From Amphiscolops sp. MND2022 (taxonomy: Eukaryota), in contig OZ076409.1 in NCBI GenBank assembly GCA_964187785.1, positions 59,460,001 to 59,524,000 of the forward strand: a stretch of DNA of 64,000 bases. The letters run 5' to 3'. The translations under genes and the position numbers were made by a program. The notes under the pieces are model-generated. The model did not search any database and was not told the origin of the DNA. It saw only the letters and a list, made by a program, of their open reading frames with translations. This document shows positions 1 to 59,932 of this stretch, in pieces. Position 1 is the first letter of the stretch; every line of letters starts with the position of its first letter.

Positions 1-2389
1 CAGTTACAGTGTATGGCGCGACAAGACCAATGGGATCATACACTGCGGACACTAAGCTAAGAACAATGCGCTGTGTAATTGGTCGGTTCAGGTCAGGCGT
101 GGTGCCTCGGCTGACAACCAAAGTGTCACGACTGTGGTTCCATTTTAAGCCCAACACGTGACAAGTCTCTTCGTCTGTTGCTAAGACTTTCTCGGTCGAG
201 TCGGTAGGCAGTTGAGATTTCGGGTCGACGCGGTTGACTAAACTTGGTACATTGCTGACGAACTTGGTTAGTTTGAAACCACCTTTCGCTAACATTTCAA
301 CAAGGTCTTGGGCTTTCTGGGTTGCTTCGTTGACGGTTGGGCTTGACTCAAGATAATCATCCATGTAAAAATGGTTTTCGACACTATTGGCGGCTTCAAG
401 GAACTGTATTCGGTTGTCACGAGCAGTCTGTTGCAAAGCGTAGTTGGCACACGTTGGTGAATCCTTGGAACCGAAAATGTGACGCACGTATTGGTACACA
501 GCGACGTCTGTTGCTGGGTCCTCCCGCCACAGAAAACGAAGAGACGGTCGGTCTTCAGGAATTACACCAACTTGTAAAAACATTCCCTCGATGTCAGCGG
601 ATACGGCGTAGGGATGTTGTCGGAATCGCATGAGTTTAACATGGATTAACGTTTGCAACAAGTCAGGACCAGTTAAAAGTTGGGTGTTCAGTGAAACACC
701 ATGAAATTTCGCTGCACCATTGAGCACGCGGCGTACTTTTCCTGGCTTGTGAGGGTGAAACACTGGGTGGTGCGGTAGGTACCACTCACGCGGGTTGTCG
801 ATTCTAAAACAGTCTGACTTGTCGATTTGAACGATGTATCCCTTTTCGAAGTCGTCTTTAATGGTCTGAGCGTAACTCGCTTTCCGTTCAGGAGATTTTT
901 CGAGTCGACGTTCAAGGGATTTCAATTGCACTAAGGCTGAAAAGTAGTTGTTGGGGAGACTACTCCCGTCATCAGCCCACAACATACCGACCTGATATCG
1001 GCATCCGTCATGATATGTTGTTTCTTGCAAAAGTTTCGACGCTCTAGCATCGGCAGCAGAGCGCGGGTCTACTTGTTTCATTGCAGCGAAAGACTCCATT
1101 TCATACCAACTCCGAAGTTGATCGGCCAACTTGGAGTCACTCTCACTTTGCGTGACAGCTTTGAAGCAAGTCGAGACGAGTCCCGAAGTCGAAGGCAGAG
1201 GTCCACTCAAAACCCAACCCAACGGTAATCGGACGGCAATTGGAGTATTTTTTCGGTCGGCTTCAAAATACTCCAACGGGCGGATTGAGTGGAACACGTC
1301 TTGACCCAGTATCATTTCGACGTCTCCGTAGCTGTACTTGCTCAGAGCAACGGGCTCCAAGTGAGGGTATTGTTGTTTCAATTGGTCAACATCAGTGACA
1401 TCGTTTCCAACATGCAAGTTTTTTCTGACGTGAGGTTTGACATCAAAAGTAGAGCAAGAGCCACCCGAATGAACAGGTGTCAACTTAAGCTCAACTATTT
1501 GAGTGTCAACAACTTGTTGAGAATTGATACCATGAACGGTTAGTTTGGTCGGTAAGCCCTTTACGTTCAACTTGGTTGCGAGATCTTCGGAGATCCAAGA
1601 GTGACTGCAGGAGGAGTTGCACAGGGCCAAAACTTTGACGGAGGTGGTTGGTGTATGAACTTCAACTTCAGTTATTTGAAGAAGTCCTTTCACATCGCTC
1701 ACGGAACAAACTCCGGAGCTTTCTCCTGCTTTATTCACAGTTGTTCTGGGGCTACGCGATCCAGTTGCTTGGTTAGTGGACTGTTTCGGTGTCGTTCTTG
1801 GTTGAAAGACTCTCTCTGCGCCATGTAGCAGGGTGTTGTAAGAGCTGCTACATCCATCTTTGTTGCACTTGCGTGGTTGCGGACATTGTCGGAAAGAATG
1901 GTTTCCTTTCAGACAAGAGAAACAAAGTTTGTTTTCGGCAACAATCTTTGCTCTGTCGGTCGGCGTTTTATCAAGAAACACGCGACAGCGCCATAGTGGA
2001 TGGTTGTCTTTGCACACAATACAGTTTAGTTGCACTCGGTTAGGCTTGGTTCCGTTTCCGTTTGAAGATGCGCTAGTAGCAGCAGAGGCAAAAACTTTCG
2101 CACCAGTTTTTGTTCGAGTAACGGATGGCGCGCTTTCATCGTTCTTGAGTTTTGTGGCTGAGACTTTCATCCTCTCGTGTGCCTCGGCCTTATCTTTCAA
2201 CCATTCGTTAAAATCCAAGAGGGTTGGTCGGCTCCAGTCTTTCTTGACAGTGTGCATAGACCAAGCTTCCTTCATGTTCGGGGGAAGTTTCTGTACTGCT
2301 TGGCCCAAAAGTGCCGCACTCGACAAGTCGTGTTCGTACTTCAAGGAGCGAAAAATTCCTACCAACGCCGAAATCGTTGCAGAGAAAAA
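1..2389 (-). CDS. BEL/Pao gag C-terminus + pol (zinc knuckles, protease, reverse transcriptase), partial; open to the window edge
   Basis: Manual translation: FSATISALVGIF...CIVCKDNHPLWRC...CFSCLKGNHSFRQC...LCNSSCSHSWIS (protease site, Asp read as Asn, ~1601-1624)...YMDD at 356-367. Probably missing from the ORF track because no stop lies inside the window. Confidence 0.9.
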
Positions 2390-2397
2390 ATTACGTT

Positions 2398-4218
2398 CTA
2401 CCTGTTGTGCATTTTCAACGGTGGGAAGCCACTTAGTTTGTCCAAGTGAGCGCTTACAACAGCGTGTGGCTGGCCAAATTTTCGTTCAAGAGTTTTCAAT
2501 GCATCTTGGTACATTGTGCCACAGTAAGCAAACTCAGCTATCGCTGTCTTGGCCTTGCCAGTTACAAGTGTTTTCAAATACGTGAGCTTTACATCATTCG
2601 AGAGTGGTGCGGAGTCAATAGCACTTCTGAATTGACCAATCCACTCGTGCCATTGTAGTGGGTCTCCGTTGTATTGCTCTAGTTTCCACTCAGGAAGATG
2701 GTCTTTTTTAACGGCAGTCAGTAGTTGCGCAAGATCTTGGATAGTAACTGCAGTTGGTGTTGCAGGGGGAATCGTTGACTGAACTGTAGTCGGAAATGTC
2801 GGAAAAGGAACGTTCACTGGGGCTGTTGTAGACTGTGGAATCGGGATGGTCATTGATGGGGTTGTTGTCGCGAGAGGATTACAATAAAAAGTTGTTCCTC
2901 CACTTTGGATTGGTACTACTGGTGCAAAAATCCCCGTTGTTGTCACGATTGGTGATGCAGTTGTGCTTGGTAGCGTAACTTGTCCTCTTACAGGCTGCGG
3001 AACTGTAGCATGTACTGTGGGGAAGCTACTCGGAGCTGGAAATGTCCAAGCGGACAAGTTCGGTATGACATGGCTTGTCGGAATGTTGACTTGAGTGACA
3101 GACGGTTGTACGTGTGGCAACAATGTCCTACTTTGTGGATTTACCATCGGTACTGTCATGGTAGAAACAGTATTCGACGTGGTGTTCACAGGTCGTGGCT
3201 GAAACATTGGCAGTGTGTTAACCGCAGCAAGTGAAGGCGAAGTACTGTTTGGCCTCAGAATGGTAGAATTAGACAAAATGCCGATTGGGGGAACCTGGCT
3301 TTGTCTCTGTCCAATATTGACATTAGCAGAAGAACTCACTAGTGGCGTTGCTTGTCTAATTTGAACAACATCGGTTAATGCGGGAATGACTGCAGGGTTG
3401 GACAATCTCGCTACATTGTCGAATTCCATAGAACTGGTCTGTGGTTGGTTTGAAACACTGTCAGGTTCATTAACTTCATTAACCCAGTCAGACACTCTCT
3501 GAGACGTTGTTTGCTTCGAGTGTTTACTAATTTGAGACAGTCTTTCACGAAGTTCGTCAGTCGCTTGAGACAAGTCGTCAGTTAACTCCAATTCAGTGAG
3601 CTTGGCTTCGGCAAGTTTTCGTCTGTTTTCTTCTTCTAGTTCTTCCAATTGGAGAGCTTGTTCTTCTTCCAACCTTTCTTTTTCGCGATCCAATTGTTTT
3701 CGAGCGACCTCTTGTTTCTGTTTAGCCAAACGAATCGCGATCGCATTTTGTCGTTCTAGTTCTTCTCGACGGTGGGTTGCTAGAAGAAGATCTTTTTGTC
3801 TTTGACTCGACGTTTTCGTTTTAGCAGAAGTTGATGATCTTTTGGAGGCACTTTTGTTGACTGTGCCGACTGATGAGTGGGACTTCACATCGGATCCGTT
3901 GCAATTGTCGATGTATTCTCGAGCTCTTCTCAAAATTTCGTCATTTTGCTCAGTGACTTCACTCAACCACTTTTCTAAGTCGGCTTGAATTGTTTCTGAG
4001 TCAGACGTTTTAGATGCAAGTGTAATCAACTGCGCGTTTCTGTCAAAAGCTTTCGTCATTGCACCTTCAGTTTCTTTGACAAGACGTTCGACTCGAACCT
4101 TTCGATCTCCATTTGTAATGGAATCGAGTATCTTTTGTTGGAGTGAATTCAATTCAGTCTGCGCCTTCAGTCGAGTTTCGTGGAGTTTCTGAACCTTTTC
4201 TTGTTGGGATTCTGTCAT
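2398..4218 (-). CDS. BEL/Pao Gag (N-terminal coiled coil, long Pro/Thr/Val-rich spacer, DUF1759-like capsid region), cut by a premature stop
   Basis: 606-aa ORF with ...KLTYLKTLVTGKAKTAIAEFAYCGTMYQDALKTLERKFGQP..., typical of BEL/Pao Gag. Homology continues in another frame after TAG at 2398-2400. Confidence 0.92.
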   Translation of the reverse strand: MTESQQEKVQKLHETRLKAQTELNSLQQKILDSITNGDRKVRVERLVKETEGAMTKAFDRNAQLITLASKTSDSETIQADLEKWLSEVTEQNDEILRRAREYIDNCNGSDVKSHSSVGTVNKSASKRSSTSAKTKTSSQRQKDLLLATHRREELERQNAIAIRLAKQKQEVARKQLDREKERLEEEQALQLEELEEENRRKLAEAKLTELELTDDLSQATDELRERLSQISKHSKQTTSQRVSDWVNEVNEPDSVSNQPQTSSMEFDNVARLSNPAVIPALTDVVQIRQATPLVSSSANVNIGQRQSQVPPIGILSNSTILRPNSTSPSLAAVNTLPMFQPRPVNTTSNTVSTMTVPMVNPQSRTLLPHVQPSVTQVNIPTSHVIPNLSAWTFPAPSSFPTVHATVPQPVRGQVTLPSTTASPIVTTTGIFAPVVPIQSGGTTFYCNPLATTTPSMTIPIPQSTTAPVNVPFPTFPTTVQSTIPPATPTAVTIQDLAQLLTAVKKDHLPEWKLEQYNGDPLQWHEWIGQFRSAIDSAPLSNDVKLTYLKTLVTGKAKTAIAEFAYCGTMYQDALKTLERKFGQPHAVVSAHLDKLSGFPPLKMHNR

Positions 4219-4445
4219 CTTGCCTGCTTTTCGGTTGTTTAGATAATAAGAGGACAGACACGGTGAGTGGCACGGTGTACGGGAAATGAAAGAACACGCT
4301 GCTGTTTTTGAGGGAGTTCCTACTGAGCATCAACCGAGCAGTGAAGCTCGGACGCAGCACAGAAAGGAACGGATGAGGCGAGTTGCAGCGTCAACCGGTC
4401 AATTAGGTCCGAACGCGGCTACAACACGAAAGGTGAGACAGGTTA

Positions 4446-5045
4446 CTAGTTGGCAGCAGACAATGTGTTTTTTATTGCCTTGCGAGCGCGTTTAGAGGGG
4501 CGTTTGGGACGACTTCGGGCAGTAATTTGCGACAGATCATTTTCATATTTCAAAACAAGATTCAGATGTTTCAGCTCTAGATCGGGGCTCTGATGCAATG
4601 CCTTTAAACTTTGCAAATAGTCTGAATCTTTTTGCTTTCGCAATGAAATGAGGTCTTTTGCAATATTCAAGACCAAGATGTCGGTTTCCTGCAATTCGGT
4701 AAAAATGTCTGGCGTTCGGTCACGTTGGCAATACACTAGAGCCCTGATTCTGTTTTGGTAAGATTTCAACACGTCTACTAGATCAGACACTGAAAGAGCA
4801 CGGTAGGAATTGCTTTTGTGTCTGCAAATACTATTGTTTATAACGTCATGCCAAATAATTAGGTCTTTTTCGTCCTTGAAATCTTTTTCAATCAAGTTCT
4901 GAACCACCTTTTTAGGATTTTTTGCATGAATGTTTAAGCTCAGGCCCGGAATAGAATAAACCTTTTCTTTAACGAGTTTTTGGTCTTCGGGTTTTACAGT
5001 TTCAATTGCGTGGTGCAAAGAACTCGCAGCCAAAATTCGAACCAT
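4446..5045 (-). CDS. Accessory ORF upstream of gag; SGNH/GDSL hydrolase-like protein with basic C-terminal tail
   Basis: Intact 199-aa ORF, same strand as gag, ending 227 nt before the gag ATG. Motif order VRILAASS / SIPGLSL / DLIIWHDVINN / ALVYC / ILVLNI / LHQS matches SGNH blocks I, II, III and V; tail RSRPKRPSKRARK. Confidence 0.6.
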   Translation of the reverse strand: MVRILAASSLHHAIETVKPEDQKLVKEKVYSIPGLSLNIHAKNPKKVVQNLIEKDFKDEKDLIIWHDVINNSICRHKSNSYRALSVSDLVDVLKSYQNRIRALVYCQRDRTPDIFTELQETDILVLNIAKDLISLRKQKDSDYLQSLKALHQSPDLELKHLNLVLKYENDLSQITARSRPKRPSKRARKAIKNTLSAAN

Positions 5046-5344
5046 TCAATTGTTTGGTAGCAATTTTCACTTGTTTTTTTTTGTTTATCGGGATTATTGG
5101 ACTTTTTTTTGCGCAATAAATGTTTTTCTCAAAAGTTCTCAATGTTTTTTTTCAGGTCTTGCTACCCAAAAACGAAGCACACATTTACAAATGCAAATAT
5201 CAAAACTTTTCTAAGTGTTTGTTTTGGGAACAAAACCTTCCGGGAGCCAAAGGTAAACCTCAGGGGTCATGGGTCAACTTCCAGGGGTCGGTGGTTAGCG
5301 TCCCGGGAACAGGGGTTGGCTTCCAAGGATCAGGGGTGGCCTCC

Positions 5345-5454
5345 GGTGGGTCACGGGTTGGCCTTTGGTGGGTCACGGGTGGGCCTCTGGTGGGTCACGG
5401 GTGGGCCTTTGGTGAGTCACGGGTTGGCCTCTGGTGGGTCACGGGTTGGCCTCT
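5345..5454. repeat. GC-rich 22-bp tandem repeat (GGTGGGTCACGGGTTGGCCTYT x5) in the element leader
   Basis: Units start at 5345, 5367, 5389, 5411 and 5433; degenerate units extend back to ~5260. Confidence 0.95.
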
Positions 5455-5466
5455 CAATGGCCACCA
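5450..5466 (-). promoter_or_regulatory. Putative primer-binding site TGGTGGCCATTGAGAGG (tRNA-Ile-like 3' end)
   Basis: Starts with TGG immediately after ...TTTTACA on the minus strand; its complement CCUCUCAAUGGCCACCA resembles a tRNA-Ile acceptor/T-stem end. Confidence 0.55.
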
Positions 5467-5800
5467 TGTAAAATTCTATATTTCGGCTTTATAGAATTCG
5501 TAAGAATTTCTACTGTTAGAATTTGAAAACAGTGATAGTTCAAGATTCTTTTATACGAGAACAGTAACAACATTAAAGTGGGTTTTTCAATCCCGCCGTT
5601 TCAATTTCGACTCAATCGTAAATCGGAAACAAATTCACTAACTGACGTGAACAGATGATTTTAATACACTGAATAGCAAGACCTTTTTCAAGTTTATTCA
5701 GAACGTGTGTGAACAAAAAGTAGATGTTTTGGACATGCAAACATTTTTCTCAAACGATTTCTATTTCCTATTTAAACTAAGTGTTATTTGCACGGCAACA
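5467..5800 (-). repeat. Putative 5' LTR of the BEL/Pao element
   Basis: Minus strand TGTTGCCG...AATAAA (~5693)...TTTTACA, directly followed by the PBS. No second LTR in the window to confirm the start. Confidence 0.4.
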
Positions 5801-8475
5801 GAGACATTAAAAGGTAAATATTTGAACAGATATTAGTTTTCTGTTTCCTTCAAAGTTTCATTTTCAAAAATCTGTTTCCTCATAGCTAATCGATAGCCAT
5901 AAACAAAACTGCTTGCTTTTCTATTGGAGCATATATTTCTTTTGATCTTCAAAGATATATCAATTAAATGACGCAAACTCACTCACTGAAACTTGACACT
6001 TTAAGAAATTTTTTGGAAATATAAAAATGATTGTCAAAACCTTCCATCATCAGTCGCTTGAACTAGATCAAAAATTTGATTCGCCAACGAAATGAATGGA
6101 AAAATTGTTCAATTCTTCTGCCATCGGCGAACTTTTTGACAACCATCATCATATACGCACTGCAAACTGCCTAAAGATTCGAAATTAAGGTAAATTATTG
6201 GAAGGTCTGTTGAAAATATGCCCATCAGGTCTAGTTTGTTCACTCAGACGATAAGATAAAATAATGACAAACGGCAAAATCAAAGGCTGTTTTTGAATAA
6301 AAAATTAAATATTCTTTTTGTACAGACTTTAATTACTTGAAACCACCCGTAGCCCTGTTTGTCAAAACTTTAGTAAAACAGAGCTTTTGTTGCAAATTGT
6401 ATATAAGCAGAATTATTGGCGCTTCACTTTTGTAAAGGCAATCAGGGCCGGGAAAAGATCTATCAACCCTCGTCGACAGTCTGACTGGAATCAAAATTTT
6501 CATTGAGGTGGGGGATGGAAATTGGCGGGAAGGAAATCGGTTATTCGTTGTGAACGGGGTTGAAAAACTCAAAATCTCGTGGAATCGAAAACAAGGCTGG
6601 GATAGTGTAATCGGGGGTATGAAGGGTCCATTTCGAAGTAAGAGATATAGGCAGAAAATTAGGCACAATTTCGATTCATCTTTGAATTGATTTTCTTGAC
6701 AATATTTGGAGCGATCGAATTTTGAACAATTCCAATTTGCCTTCAAAAATTTCTCAAGAAATCAAAACCATCACAAAAACTCGCATCTTGGCTCGTGTAT
6801 TTCAAATGATACTCGCAGTTCGTTTATACAATTTTTAACAACCTTTCGAACAATACATCTCGACAAAGAAGCCAACTTCGGAAATCGTGTCCAATCAAAC
6901 TATTCTGAGAATCTTCATCTGTCAAAACAACCGTGATTGGAACTTTGAAATTGTGGACGAAAAATGTAGGGGAACTATTTTCTAGCAGAAGCAATAATTC
7001 GATTTTTGCTGATGCTAAACAAAAAATGGCAGATAGCTGGACAACTTCTAATATACTTCTGGAGAAAAAGACCTTCTAGTTTTCTGTGGAGTGAAAAGTT
7101 AACTTCCCGACATTCCACACATGTTTTGGAGGGAAACAAGTATTTCACAATCTCAGCAGTGAAAACTTTCGTGTAAAATAATGAAAAGTAATCCAGGAAA
7201 ATAGAGTTTGAAAAGATATTTTATCAAATTTTCAAAATTCCATCAAAAATTGCAACTTAATGAAACGGTTGTTTTTTATCTCTGGGTATCATTTTTCCAT
7301 TTTTTTGCTTTTAATTTTTCAAACCAAAGTTTTTCGTATTTCCCAAAAATCTACGACAAAAATTAGGCTCATAAATTTTGTTTCTGGAGTTAAACGTTCC
7401 AAAATCAGTCAAACGTTATTTGAACGTTCCAAAGTCAGAAAGGTACAAAATGTTGGAAAAGTTCGAACATTTTCTCATTTTCACATAAATATTGTCGAAT
7501 GTTTGAGCACTCTAGTACGCACGAAAACACAGCGTTCAATAAAAACATTGGCTCCTCAATTAATTTTTTTGAAGTTTCATTGAGAAAAAACCCAAAACGA
7601 ACCAAAAAAGCCAAAGAACGCAACTATTCGTGTAAGCTTTGATCATTTCCGTTTTCTGCAAGCAGATTAATTACGCTAGAGCCTCAAAATTATGTTGTCG
7701 AAATGGATAATTCCCGTGCCAGGGAATCGTGCCAATGATCATTGTTAACAGATGATATATTATTCTTCATTCTTGAAGGCTAAGATTTTTACCGCGTAAA
7801 TATTTTCAAGTTCTGAGGCATTGAATAACGTTTCCACAACAATGTAAAAAAAACTTTTGAAAGTTAAGTATCAGCCCGTGAATCCTTAAAAATGCAAACA
7901 GATTTTTTTGACTGAAACTCAAAGATGTTTACATAATGTTCGATCTATTTGAAATAATTGACACTATAACTCAAAAAGCATTCAGTTGCTTGACAGGCAA
8001 CGAGAGTTTGAGACCAAAACATTTTTACACGTAGCGCTTCTTCGGGAACACATACTACACGATGACCCGAAAAAACCGTACACTAATTAATTTTTGCTTG
8101 AATTGAAATACTAGATATAGGTAGACCAAACATGACAAAGCGTATGTGGTACTGAACTGGGCTGTCAATCAAAAAATGCAAAAGGCGTTTTCAAACTGCC
8201 TGTGATCAAAAAAGTGCGTTTCTGATTGCGAGTTCTTGATTTTGGTTCAATTTACCGGCCAAATCTGTCTGATTTTGTCCTGAAACAGATAATGTTGTTC
8301 TGAATGATTGCCATGCGACAAATTGAAATTCAAAGTGCTCGTAACATGTTTTTGACAAATGTTTACGTTTTCAAACTGACGAAATTTGACATGTCGAGTT
8401 TTTTGCAGGTCACCTAGAATTGAGAGTTGTGAATTTCAATTTAGTGACATTTGCAAAAAATGTGTCTGATTTTCA

Positions 8476-11514: not shown

Positions 11515-12023
11515 GTAAATAACTTCTAAATAAATAAGTTCTAAAATTATATTAGTAAATAACTTCTAAATAAATAAGTTCTAAAATTATATTAGTAAAT
11601 AACTTCTAAAATGCATTTGCGTCTGGTAACTTCTGAAATCATTCTAGTAAAGATTGCTATTCATTCTTCCGAAAATAAATTAACCGTTCCATTATTCCGA
11701 AAATAAACTTACCGTTCTATTATTCCGAAAACTGTTATTTGAAAAGATTAGCATATTTGTTGTATGGCTCGTCCCGTCGCTTCGCTCCCTTCGCCAAGTA
11801 GCAACATTGAGGCATGGCCATATGGCCTGCATTTAGGGCACTAGGGGTATGTGAACATAGCTAACGACGTTATAGAAATAATTACGTCAAAATAGCTGTT
11901 TGGAAGTTATTTACTAGATGCCATTGCAATTTAGAAGTTATTTACTAAAATAATTTTAGAACTTATTTATTTAGAAGTTGTTTACTATATTAATTAGAAG
12001 TTATTTATTTAGAAGTTATTTAC
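11515..12023. repeat. Fold-back/MITE-like element built from GTAAATAACTTCTAAA units (39-bp tandem left arm, inverted right arm)
   Basis: Left arm GTAAATAACTTCTAAATAAATAAGTTCTAAAATT repeats; right arm TTAGAAGTTATTTAC repeats. Confidence 0.8.
11746..11874 (+). repeat. Short dispersed repeat (TAGCATATTT...CGCTTCGCTC...GCATTTAGGGCACTAGGGGTATGTGAA...CGTTATA), copy 1
   Basis: Near-identical copy at 16938-17084 and a partial copy at ~55590-55678. Confidence 0.85.
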
Positions 12024-12038
12024 TTCCCCCATACTTTA

Positions 12039-14678: not shown

Positions 14679-15687
14679 CCCGGGTTGACACTCTTACTAG
14701 CATCTTGGCTGTCTTGGCAAGATCTTGCCAAATTCTTTTTACATCTTGAAAACCATGGATCCCATGGCAAGATTCTTGTTAAGATCTTACTATGATAATA
14801 CATTATTCCAAGATCGTATCTTATCAAGATGGACAAAACTTTAAGATTATAAAAAACACTATTCCTTCGGTACAAGCAGCCGAGACTCAATCTGAAGGCT
14901 CATTTCACCCGACAACTACTATTTCTACCCGTTTTCGTAATCAAAATACTTAAACCTGCTGCAAAAATTTTGCATGCAAAAATGCGTGAATAATTATGAT
15001 AACTTATTCTGGCTTCCGAAATTCTGACGAGAATCCTAATAACTATTCACCTGTTCAAGACTGAGAAATGCGAATGTACCAAATGAAAGCTCATTTCAAG
15101 GGGCTTTCCAAAACTTGTAATTTATCACTCCTGTCTATTCGTCTATTCCAGAGACGGAGGAAACTGCTCAAAAACGTCCAGAGCCACTTCGTAAAGTTAC
15201 ACAGAAACACCTAAAAATCCGGAAATCTTTGAAACATCATATGTCCTGCTATCTTTGAGCCTGTTTCAGCAGCCTTATTACTGCTAGAAACGGTGGTCAT
15301 AGTCCCAGTTTGGGCGATGATTCAGCTCAAGGCTTTTCTGACGCCGTTGTTGGCGAAAGTTTAACAATTGAAAGGACAATTTAATAAGTGCCTCCTAAAT
15401 AAACAGCATAAGTAGTCTTCAAACAAATTTTATACTTTGCTAGCAGAAAATTGTCATGTCTAACAATGTAAATCTGCAAAGATGTTGATTGTTGTTGACT
15501 TCGTCCCTGATTATTTCTTGCCAAATAGGATTTTAAAATGAAACTTTTCTTGGGAACATGGCTCTCTTGATAAGATCTCATCATGGCAAAATGAAGACCA
15601 TGGCAAGATCTTGACAAGATCTTAACCAAGACTGTTCCAAGATCTTGCCAAGATCTTACTAAGATATCCATGAAGGGTCAACCCGGG
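14679..15687. mobile_element. Non-autonomous EnSpm/CACTA-like DNA transposon, family A
   Basis: TIR CCCGGGTTGAC...GTCAACCCGGG, 2-bp TSD AA, subterminal CAAGATCTTG repeats; full-length inverted homolog at 48676-49674. Confidence 0.8.
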
Positions 15688-16244
15688 AATATATTCAATT
15701 CAAATATATTGACAATGGGAGGCGGAAGTTTCGTCGTCGGATATTCAGTCATCAACAAAATCCTCGAAGGAAATTTCGTCGTATTAGCAAATCCAGAAGG
15801 TTCGTCGTCAGAAATTTAGTCGTATTGATTAAAATTAACAGTGTTCACAAAAAGATATCATTTGAATTATTCAATTATTTAATTATCAAAAGGAGATCCT
15901 GGGAAGAAGATTCAGTTTGACACCAAAATCAAAGAATCCTGGTAATTTTTGCTTTAAGTGTCGAAACAACTTCGTGTTGGGGATACGAAACAAGGTGTAT
16001 CCGGGGGGGGGGTCATAACGTACATGGTCCGAAAATTTTCCTCCCAAAACAATAACTGAAAGTAGTCAATGATAGTAATAATTGTGCAATTATCGATAGT
16101 TATTAGGACTCAAAAAAAGGTTCCTAATAGATTCAGGGTTTGCATGTTTAAAACACAGTTTGTTTTAAACACGTTTTAAACATGCTCTAAACACGTTTTA
16201 AACATAGCTGAACTCTAACGTTTGTCTTTTTCACATACGAATGG

Positions 16245-58246: not shown

Positions 58247-59932
58247 CAGTCGAACGTCGGTTATCCGGAAGTCGATTAACCGGACACTCGATTAACCGGA
58301 CTGCGCTTAGGTGAATACATGTGATTTGTTTAATTCAGAAAATAGCAAGCAAGCGTTCTGCGCGGGGCATTGTTTCGATTACATGTACCATCGTTTGCTG
58401 TGTCAAATTGTTTACTCAATTAATTTACACTTGTTGCAATGAGCGGAACGCGCAAGAAACTTGTTTTATCGATCGATCAAAAGCTTGCGGTGATGACGCC
58501 AAATTATTGACTGCTGCAGCTATTTGTAGTAAATAAGGAATGGGAAAATCAACATTAATTGAAATTAAAGCATCGGAAATGAAGTTGGAGGCCTTTGTGA
58601 ATAAAAACCCGGCAATTCCGGATCGGGTATAGCTAAGACAATGAAACAAAAATCATATATGTTTATTTGAAGCTCTATCTATTTGGACGAGACAAATGCG
58701 CAAGAAAAACATCACAAAAACAGGACCTACGCATAGAAAAAAAGCTGTATTGTTATTTCCTCGTCTTTATGCAAATCAAGCCGCGGAATTCACACCTGGT
58801 ACAGGTTTTATTTGGCGGTTTTGCAAATGACACAATTTATCCGCAATCTCTGTTCAGGGCGAAATTATTTCAAACGCGACAGGAAGCATTAAACTGCCAT
58901 TGGAAAGTCACTGCGCCCTCGTGCTTTCAAAAACATCAAGAACGAAAATTTACCAGTTAAATTATTTGCCCAGAAAAATGCTTGGATGGGTTCCTAAATT
59001 TTTAAAGCCTGGTTTTTCGACCAATTTGTGCCTTCTGTTCGCCAAACCCAAAAAGCACTTGGCGACGAACCGAAAGTAATTTTATTTCTTGACAACTGTT
59101 CAGCGCATCCAGATGCTTCCGAAATTTCAACCGATGAAGGCAAAATCGTGGCATATTTTTTCCCGCCCAACGTTACATCAATTTTGCAACCAATGGACCA
59201 AGGGGTACTGGAAACACTGAAAAGACGCTATAAACGTGACCTAATGCGTTACATCGTTGTAGAGATCGATTCTAACCCAAACTTTTCGTGGGATCAATTC
59301 ATGAAATCTATAGACTTTTTAAATGTCATACGAATGATCAGCGCGGCTTGGGCACCTATCGAGACAACCCTTATTCAAAAGTCTTGGAAACACTTGGGTC
59401 TGAACAACGAATCAGAAAACACGCCAGAAGATAATGCCGAACCAGACATCCAGGCACTTCTCCATATTTTGGCTCCGGATGCGGATTTCGGGGTGCAAAT
59501 CGATTAGTGGCTATATGGGGATGCGGATGACCTAGGGTATGAATATCTTGATGATGAAGAAATTTTGGCACTTGTTGAAAGCCCTGATCAACCTGAAGAG
59601 TTATCTGATGATGATATTACTGAAATTCCAAATGAAACTGATAAGAAAACCATACCACATGCTGACTGCGGGCACTGTCCATGGCACTGGATTGGCTAAA
59701 CGAACAACCTGAAGCTACCTCATATAATTTATCTGTTTCACAATCCTCGAAAGAACTTGCCGCTTCAAAGCGGATGGAATGTCTTAAACAACCCAGACTT
59801 CAATCATTTTTTTGCAAATAAATTGAGTTTTTGTGCAATTCGTTTTTTGTCGATTGTCCGGAAAAATTGTTTATCTGGACCCTGGTCCGAAAATGAACCG
59901 CCCATTAGGTCCGGATAATCGAGGTTCGACTG
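58247..59932 (+). mobile_element. Tigger/pogo (CENP-B-like DDE_1) DNA transposon, decayed and internally deleted
   Basis: TIRs CAGTCGAACGTCGGTTATCCGGA / TCCGGATAATCGAGGTTCGACTG, then TA on the right; ILFLDNCSAHP...FFPPNVTSILQPMDQGV in ORF 59028-59507; N-terminal HTH remnants from ~58438. Confidence 0.92.

Follow-up and report, generated by a model that had tools for sequence, protein, structure and literature searches.

Retrotransposons have acquired esterase domains time and again, and to our knowledge no one has established what these do.

Among the closest described systems, the Vesta LTR elements of bdelloid rotifers carry a GDSL-type ORF3 downstream of pol, which is shared with the Penelope-like Athena elements according to the accessible part of the report (PMC5408684). 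The esterase of ZfL2-1 is described in the accessible text as basic (pI 10.8), weakly active and able to bind liposomes, and as not binding RNA alone (PMC3905857). For the Belpaoviridae only gag, pol and env are listed (PMC8742986), and plant LTR elements have extra ORFs upstream or downstream, as stated in the accessible section of PMC7264820. The accessible parts of PMC6431247, PMC6338049 and PMC3118150 contain nothing on a 5' esterase gene. No 5' SGNH ORF in BEL, Gypsy or LINE elements was found in the literature searched, with Repbase, GyDB, supplements and most subscription papers outside its coverage.

The gene described here, ORF0, lies in a window of 64,000 nucleotides of genomic DNA from Amphiscolops sp. 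MND2022, in a BEL/Pao element. ORF0 is a front accessory gene of retrotransposons. We give a probability of roughly 0.55 to the combined reading that it is a selected, portable gene fronting BEL/Pao, Gypsy and LINE elements, whose basic product would have an SGNH fold and likely be a weak Ser-His esterase binding acidic lipids, and which would likely be passed by leaky scanning.

The window element and its sister copies

ORF0 occupies positions 4446..5045 of the window, on the minus strand like all features of the element, and runs over 199 codons from ATG to TAG with the motifs ILAASS, IPG, IIWHDVINN and LHQS. It encodes a predicted SGNH-fold domain (about aa 1-173) followed by a Lys/Arg-rich tail, has a weak start context and no internal Met, and lies 421 nt downstream of the 334-bp LTR and 227 nt upstream of the gag ATG at 4218. 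The 5' LTR (5467..5800, TG...CA) has counterparts at both ends of the sister copies, where the two LTRs are 96.4-99.7% identical. It is directly adjoined by a primer-binding site (PBS) beginning with TGG (5449..5466), found at the same place in the sisters; one pattern search for the priming tRNA gave no match, a weak blank. The leader also contains a 22-bp tandem repeat (5311..5454, repeat family D1). Downstream of ORF0, the spacer carries two copies of an RNA hairpin (4395..4412 and 4334..4351) with compensatory changes across the clade, and folds at z -2.69. Gag (2398..4218) has a strong start context and a DUF1759 domain (Pfam, E 3.7e-11), and is cut by a frameshift near 2400. The gag remainder with Cys-His boxes, the protease and RT (1..2485) carry more breaks and continue past the window edge into locus L021.

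The window copy is defective: besides the gag frameshift, pol is broken at other points and the 3' end has been rearranged, with the damage partly outside the window. At its 3' end, 68 bp of LTR are followed by a 99.4% copy of the 609-bp 5' flank and the whole LTR (window 5467-6409; L021 6447-7458). The flank itself lies at 5801..6409, and its copy with the LTR (L021 6447-7389) matches at 99.4% over 943 bp. This duplication is either a rearrangement or an assembly artefact.

The element had initially been annotated as a BEL/Pao retrotransposon with an intact ORF of 199 aa between PBS and gag on the same strand and no LTR or terminal inverted repeat between ORF0 and gag, and each of these points held. 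ORF, LTR, PBS and gag ATG could all be located. By repeat search and sister alignment, no LTR, inverted repeat or insertion boundary was found between 4218 and 4446, and the sisters align colinearly with the window throughout the ORF0-gag region at 96-99% identity. ORF0 sits with BEL gag inside paired LTRs in six of nine sister copies, which was the linkage to be checked; these LTR pairs are of the TG..CA type, and five copies have 5-bp target-site duplications, as expected of BEL/Pao. Two sister copies encode a single unbroken gag-pol of 2167 codons after a 200-codon ORF0. Peptidase_A17 and DUF5641 were detected on carriers L055, L063 and L106, the first two of which are the companions of the window copy on the RT tree; taken over the window gag and these carriers, DUF1759, Peptidase_A17 and DUF5641 occur in gag-PR-RT-RH-IN order.

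A tRNA-like stretch with A- and B-box-like motifs lies about 50-125 nt into the LTR of a sister subfamily (L036/L034 and L170); ARAGORN reported no tRNA in 23 loci, this stretch included. Elsewhere in the window, long inverted repeats of MITE-like type were seen at 11515-12025 and 14712-15824, as well as a 169-codon fragment (58998-59507) which we take to resemble a pogo/Tigger DDE transposase.

ORF0 across three element classes

A genome search with ORF0 gave 150/150 scored matches, from 3638 candidates, and its relatives form 682 clusters at 50% identity. These matches and clusters, together with purifying selection, indicate that ORF0 is more than a chance ORF. Within the window family, an ORF0 match lies 3-7.5 kb upstream in 79 of the best 100 of 131 pol matches. 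Fifteen of the 21 misses were fetched; nine hold a frameshifted ORF0 and six are without it through deletion, truncation or rearrangement. Among these best 100 matches and 15 fetched misses, therefore, no coherent ORF0-less subfamily was seen, although the initial annotation had considered that other gag-pol copies might lack the ORF.

For BEL elements as a class ORF0 is dispensable, being absent in full form from 35 of 40 BELs chosen by their RNase H domain alone, a sampling that favoured long open frames. A full ORF0 is present in five of these, 20 have an LTR pair and no ORF0, and the remaining 15 show neither an LTR pair nor a full ORF0, one of them with a 22-bit fragment. On the RT tree (68 of 79 usable rows kept, three short rows excluded beforehand), one deep clade of 30 rows, which had been picked by ORF0, consists entirely of carriers, and two more carrier lineages are placed among non-carriers. 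One ORF0-less BEL family (L088, L089, L091, L096) has a different ORF of 170-190 codons at its 5' end that overlaps the LTR and gave no Pfam match (L096 tested). Three deleted copies (L161, L167, L168) resume at most about 100 nt apart in the Thr/Pro-rich part of gag. That ORF0-less copies are splice products was rejected: neither of the junctions read, those of L161 and L167, is of the GT-AG type, and L170 has undergone rearrangement.

Sixty homologous loci were picked by hand to span the subfamilies, and all 60 are located 5' in retrotransposons: 32 BEL, 18 LINE and 9 Gypsy elements and one truncated LINE 5' end, some being classed by identity to a Pfam-tested sister. An LTR pair is in view for 29 of the 32 BEL carriers. 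The nine Gypsy carriers have 158-bp LTRs, paired in eight, and PR-RT-RH-IN order. In the 18 LINE carriers ORF0 is followed by ORF1, often with a PHD finger, and by APE-RT; homology between LINE copies extends from just upstream of ORF0, mostly through to the microsatellite tail. ORF0 is a separate ORF of about 200 aa in all 75 extracted copies, and no longer fused form was found among 8000 candidates, which is weak evidence. The LTR lineage with a 5' accessory protein originally proposed is hence right as to a 5' accessory gene in LTR elements and wrong as to a single lineage: besides many BEL families, it was seen in a Gypsy family and in several LINE families. Nested insertion and a host-gene origin of ORF0 were rejected, with 0/60 loci standing alone. 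The same ORF0-ORF1-ORF2 layout occurs on three metagenome contigs, and the one tested is at most 45% identical to anything in the present genome, which shows that the layout extends beyond this assembly. On one metagenome contig (L196, 2-2425) an ORF with a PIF1 helicase and GIY-YIG lies upstream of an ORF0 homologue.

In the ORF0 tree, built on 200 columns with moderately supported deep branches, BEL and LINE rows interleave, with seven class changes against a minimum of two. Element classes were set as tree groups before the trees, and the tests were chosen after the trees had been seen. For a second tree each subfamily was represented by one to three rows, 35 of 75 in total, and a control dropped eight more (five long, three Gypsy). 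A single BEL clade was rejected (p-AU 5.9e-6; 8.8e-4 without long rows and Gypsy), as was a single LINE clade (p-AU 8.6e-5). Because the two classes interleave and both one-clade tests were rejected, the gene very probably moved between element classes; ORF0 would thus exemplify gene flow at the 5' end between LTR and non-LTR elements. ORF0 distances nevertheless follow RT distances (rho 0.74 over 23 BEL families, 0 of 2000 permutations; rho 0.37 over 12 deep BEL lineages, 15 of 2000 permutations), and this, despite the interleaved tree, points to mostly vertical descent with occasional swaps. A self-contained design, in which scanning ribosomes can pass ORF0, could let the gene swap onto any retroelement by template switching. 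BEL and Gypsy carriers (L073, L080, L131 and the Gypsy family L121-L140) have the same primer-binding site, BEL carriers overall using several, and tandem repeats of the 5' end including ORF0 were found in L126 (three) and L059 (two).

ORF0 is under purifying selection. By Nei-Gojobori counting, judged where dS > 0.1, dN/dS was 0.04-0.31 in 12 of 13 BEL pairs and 0.64 in the other; one further pair was saturated. The check among copies foreseen at the outset thus gave between-family values mostly of 0.04-0.3. Five near-identical BEL pairs gave 0.38-1.84, as expected from decay after insertion. LINE pairs with dS > 0.1 gave 0.07, 0.28, 0.38 and 0.53, and the sole such Gypsy pair 0.40, most LINE and Gypsy pairs being too close to judge. 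ORF0 and pol can differ in history, since dS between the window and its sister subfamily was 1.46 for ORF0 and 0.20 for pol, and since L131 and L135, 91-96% alike in ORF0, drop to 71-84% over most of pol.

An independent mobile cassette or passenger, inserting near retroelement 5' ends without benefit to the carrier, would suit the patchy spread across classes and within BEL and a tree that is incongruent at depth. It does not suit the lack of terminal repeats or duplications around ORF0, the fact that none of the 60 loci stands alone, the tracking of RT distances in the 23 BEL families or the purifying selection, and this explanation is largely refuted and very improbable.

Predicted fold, conserved residues and possible function

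Pfam did not detect the ORF0 family (window ORF and 95 members), and PHROGs, PDB searches by sequence and by profile, and the ESM Atlas queried with the window protein returned no fold match. The family thus represents hundreds of clusters overlooked by Pfam-based annotation. An AlphaFold model based on a 95-row alignment reached pLDDT 95.9 and pTM 0.87. Its strands at 3-6, 29-31, 62-64, 100-105 and 124-127, with helices between them, follow SGNH order, in agreement with the five alternating strands and helices first read from the sequence, and give the five-stranded alpha/beta/alpha arrangement of that fold. In a fold search of 48,161 chains the best matches were SGNH esterases/hydrolases (VIA, Z 10.8, rmsd 3.4 A, 152 residues), and SGNH matches over the searches ranged over Z 10.8-11.1, rmsd 3.0-3.4 A and 147-152 residues. 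The Oskar OSK domain was among the matches at Z 8.4. The suggested AlphaFold and Foldseek check yielded an SGNH match too, the best Foldseek match being a GDSL lipase (E 3.6e-4), and the ESM Atlas queried with an ORF0 relative returned SGNH clusters at 0.90. The ZfL2-1 esterase structure is absent from the matches listed in the fold searches, which excludes nothing. On the strength of the predicted model, ORF0 almost certainly has an SGNH fold.

The namesake positions, mapped by position relative to the model strands and not by residue-level superposition, are strongly kept as block I Ser, II Gly, III Asn and V His. Among 74 classified genome copies, His151 is present in 74, Ser8 in 73, Gly34 in 69 and Asn70 in 66; in alignment A1 the counts are 85/90 for Ser8, 87/92 for Gly34, 78/95 for Asn70 and 87/94 for His151. 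The GDS block has become G/A-A-S, and the block-III Gly of GxND is lost (position 68 is V/I/A/L). The Asp of DxxH, which had appeared to be missing on first inspection, is indeed lost from block V: position 148 varies, and Asp does not feature among the residues common there. In a survey of SGNH structures the Asp is the acid in 23/30, and some enzymes use a main-chain oxygen instead (PMC10792757); the loss of Asp therefore does not exclude catalysis. ORF0 has a pI of 9.6 (family 9.3-11.7) with 11-14 Lys/Arg in the last 35 residues, and neither a hydrophobic segment nor a signal peptide was found in ORF0 proteins.

By analogy with zebrafish ZfL2-1, its best precedent, the ORF0 protein could do the job of the esterase and arginine-rich motif in ORF1p, and would thus help the RNP or particle to interact with membranes. 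That ORF0 is an active or lipid-binding esterase helping RNP or particle traffic is a tentative reading, which we place slightly below even odds.

The loss of the block-V Asp, the basic pI, the Lys/Arg-rich tail and the OSK match at Z 8.4 would also agree with a factor without catalytic activity that uses its SGNH scaffold for nucleic-acid binding or nuclear import and, like OSK, would coat or escort the element RNA. However, the loss of catalytic Ser and His typical of OSK was not found: His151 (74/74) and Ser8 (73/74) are kept, whereas OSK is without the triad according to the accessible text of PMC10792757. In addition, the basic ZfL2-1 esterase did not bind oligo-A RNA (PMC3905857, accessible part), and no RNA target common to the carriers was seen, since those of the LINE and Gypsy classes lack the spacer hairpin. 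The inactive, Oskar-like comparison drawn at the outset is thereby weakened by the nearly invariant Ser8 and His151, despite the lost Asp, and we consider such a factor improbable.

The carriers' structural proteins are unrelated, so the target of ORF0 is likely host-side or generic. This also speaks for a deacylase that would counter host defence by modifying a host substrate (silencing factor, lipid messenger or glycan), a function from which unrelated classes would all gain, and repeated exchange with region swaps between families would be typical of host-conflict genes. Selection on ORF0 is strongly purifying, however, and not diversifying, and the protein has neither signal peptide nor hydrophobic segment; a deacylase of this type is accordingly unlikely. 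More speculatively, and at odds of about one in three, ORF0 could be a plug-in first cistron of acoel retrotransposons: a Pfam-invisible SGNH enzyme gene selected to be scanned through, fitting any BEL, Gypsy or LINE element while leaving gag or ORF1 expressed, and moved repeatedly between LTR and non-LTR elements, which would provide membrane passage or silencing escape, an activity directed at the host, and so have helped the elements fill the genome.

Translation of the carriers and comparison with known systems

ORF0 is poor in ATG, with 3.9 per kb against 15.9 in the downstream ORFs, a contrast far stronger than that for the remaining permutations of these three bases. Internal Met accounts for 5/6270 ORF0 codons against 679/49794 downstream (33 family representatives), and for 37/18036 in the alignment. 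Out-of-frame ATG are fewer than in codon shuffles for LINE (9 vs 39.8), other BEL (26 vs 48.1), the window clade (33 vs 42.6, P 0.05) and Gypsy (1 vs 3.9, P 0.08), the depletion being weakest in the window's own clade. A pyrimidine is found at -3 in 22/25 ORF0 starts and a purine in 21/25 next-ORF starts, counts that are non-independent with 8/25 from one clade. Intervening AUGs split 46 to 45 in their -3 context, and 74/91 open ORFs of at most 20 codons. The window copy contains four out-of-frame AUGs in ORF0 (two with a purine at -3), one in the spacer and three in the leader; sister leaders hold up to 14, and leaders of LTR carriers are AUG-rich.

Since ORF0 is AUG-poor with a weak start and the next ORF has a strong one, we infer that it is passed by leaky scanning. 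This is rather probable over all carriers, quite likely in the LINEs, and just short of an even chance in the window clade. Part of the scanning ribosomes would start at the weak ORF0 AUG; others would scan some 700-1200 nt of AUG-poor RNA to the strong gag or ORF1 AUG, short out-of-frame ORFs being passed by re-initiation, and gag or ORF1 would thereby still be made from the same RNA. For gag, the initial annotation had listed re-initiation, splicing or internal initiation; leaky scanning was not on that list and agrees better with the sequence than would splicing, or re-initiation once ORF0 has been translated. AUG-rich LTR leaders, the five intervening AUGs of the window copy and the spacer hairpins, which would slow scanning, count against it.

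The hairpin of the window clade occurs in 2-4 repeats, and 85/99 of its variable cells are paired against a shuffle mean of 57 and maximum of 70, a statistic that ignores the relatedness of copies. It is absent from LINE, Gypsy and RNase-H-picked BELs. The hairpin is likely a packaging signal, in which case ORF0 would have entered between the PBS and what was originally the leader.

A shared 5' motif is located 45-240 nt before ORF0 in 16/18 LINE carriers (partial in two). Followed by GT, it has 1269 occurrences in the genome, largely in a tandem array linked to 5S rRNA, and it is identical to the spliced leader (SL) reported for the acoel Symsagittifera roscoffensis in the accessible text of PMC9911081. 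The LINE copies likely derive from trans-spliced RNA, with ORF0 as the first long ORF after the cap. In the SL RNA gene array (L200-L229, G000:C1:16.23-16.42 Mb) many genes are at 904-bp spacing, with GT donor, Sm-like site and interspersed 5S rRNA. Full-length LINE copies of unrelated families, with or without ORF0, start with the host SL (L041-L060, L134, L138, L139, L149, L154, L193). Such LINEs may be without a promoter of their own, the 5' end coming from trans-splicing and the acceptor being regenerated in each new copy.

The SL system of the host, its 5S rRNA-linked gene array with GT donor, the SL at the start of LINE carriers, the AUG-rich LTR leaders and the covarying hairpins would also agree with gag being made from processed RNA: ORF0 could be lost through SL trans-splicing or cis-splicing in the spacer, in the manner of nematode operons, or the hairpins could serve as an internal entry site. 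Processing leaves the AUG depletion and weak start of ORF0 unexplained, however. Acceptor-like hexamers are not clearly enriched in the spacers of 17 LTR elements (19 sense vs 13 antisense), none is present in the window copy, and the leaders show no conserved acceptor; the search for an SL-gag retrocopy gave a weak blank, and the junctions read in deleted copies (L161, L167) are not GT-AG. We regard processing as a less likely source of gag, at about one chance in four, and leaky scanning as the preferred one.

Among known systems, ORFs I and II of rice tungro bacilliform virus (RTBV) and badnaviruses resemble ORF0: they are small, start weakly, contain few AUGs and precede the polyprotein. 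These are plant pararetroviruses with unrelated proteins, in which leaky scanning is proven and not inferred (PMC5902531). What is suggested here is leaky scanning through a 600-nt ORF, proven in the literature found only in plant pararetroviruses and some animal viruses. With the Belpaoviridae the window element shares LTRs, PBS and gag-pol in PR-RT-RH-IN order (PMC8742986). Oskar OSK is like ORF0 in its SGNH fold (Z 8.4) and basic character, but has no triad, while ORF0 keeps Ser and His.

The ORF1p esterases of CR1/L2/RTEX elements share with ORF0 the SGNH fold, a basic surface, an Arg/Lys-rich motif and a 5' position in LINEs, and His66 of ORF0 is four residues before Asn70, as are H191 and N195 of ZfL2-1; they differ in that they belong to ORF1p itself, where they follow a coiled coil, and have the complete Asp-His-Ser triad (PMC3905857). 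ORF0 is instead an ORF of its own ahead of a PHD-type ORF1, and a canonical esterase was found in ORF1 of 0/18 LINE carriers with a shallow profile. By hhalign, ORF0 and six canonical esterases of the genome aligned at a probability of 26% in the wrong register. In this genome, the integrase C-terminal domain of a Gypsy-like LTR family (L141-L148, L152) continues into a fused SGNH esterase with canonical motifs (GDS, GTND, DGIHP), so that an esterase was captured here a second time and independently. Multicopy ORFs of about 300 aa with (near-)canonical esterase motifs and a LINE ORF1-like layout were seen at L149-L151 and L153-L160. With one small, soluble, stand-alone putative esterase kept by three classes in one host, the esterase question becomes testable with one protein.

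Vesta is similar in that a separate SGNH gene lies in an LTR element, that the gene type is shared across retroelement classes and that template switching has been proposed; its ORF3, in contrast, is 3' of pol, HHpred-detectable and intact in its catalytic residues (accessible part of PMC5408684). The initial annotation knew of no description of the layout: no 5' shared SGNH ORF was found in the literature, but an SGNH gene in an LTR element as such is known from Vesta, as the accessible part of PMC5408684 reports. Compared with Vesta ORF3, ORF0 comes first in its BEL, Gypsy and APE-type LINE carriers, ahead of gag or ORF1; it lacks the Asp, escapes Pfam and bears a leaky-scanning signature. 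A 5' stand-alone position, its occurrence in BEL, Gypsy and LINE elements alike and a scanning-friendly sequence thus set ORF0 apart from the known esterase-carrying retrotransposons.
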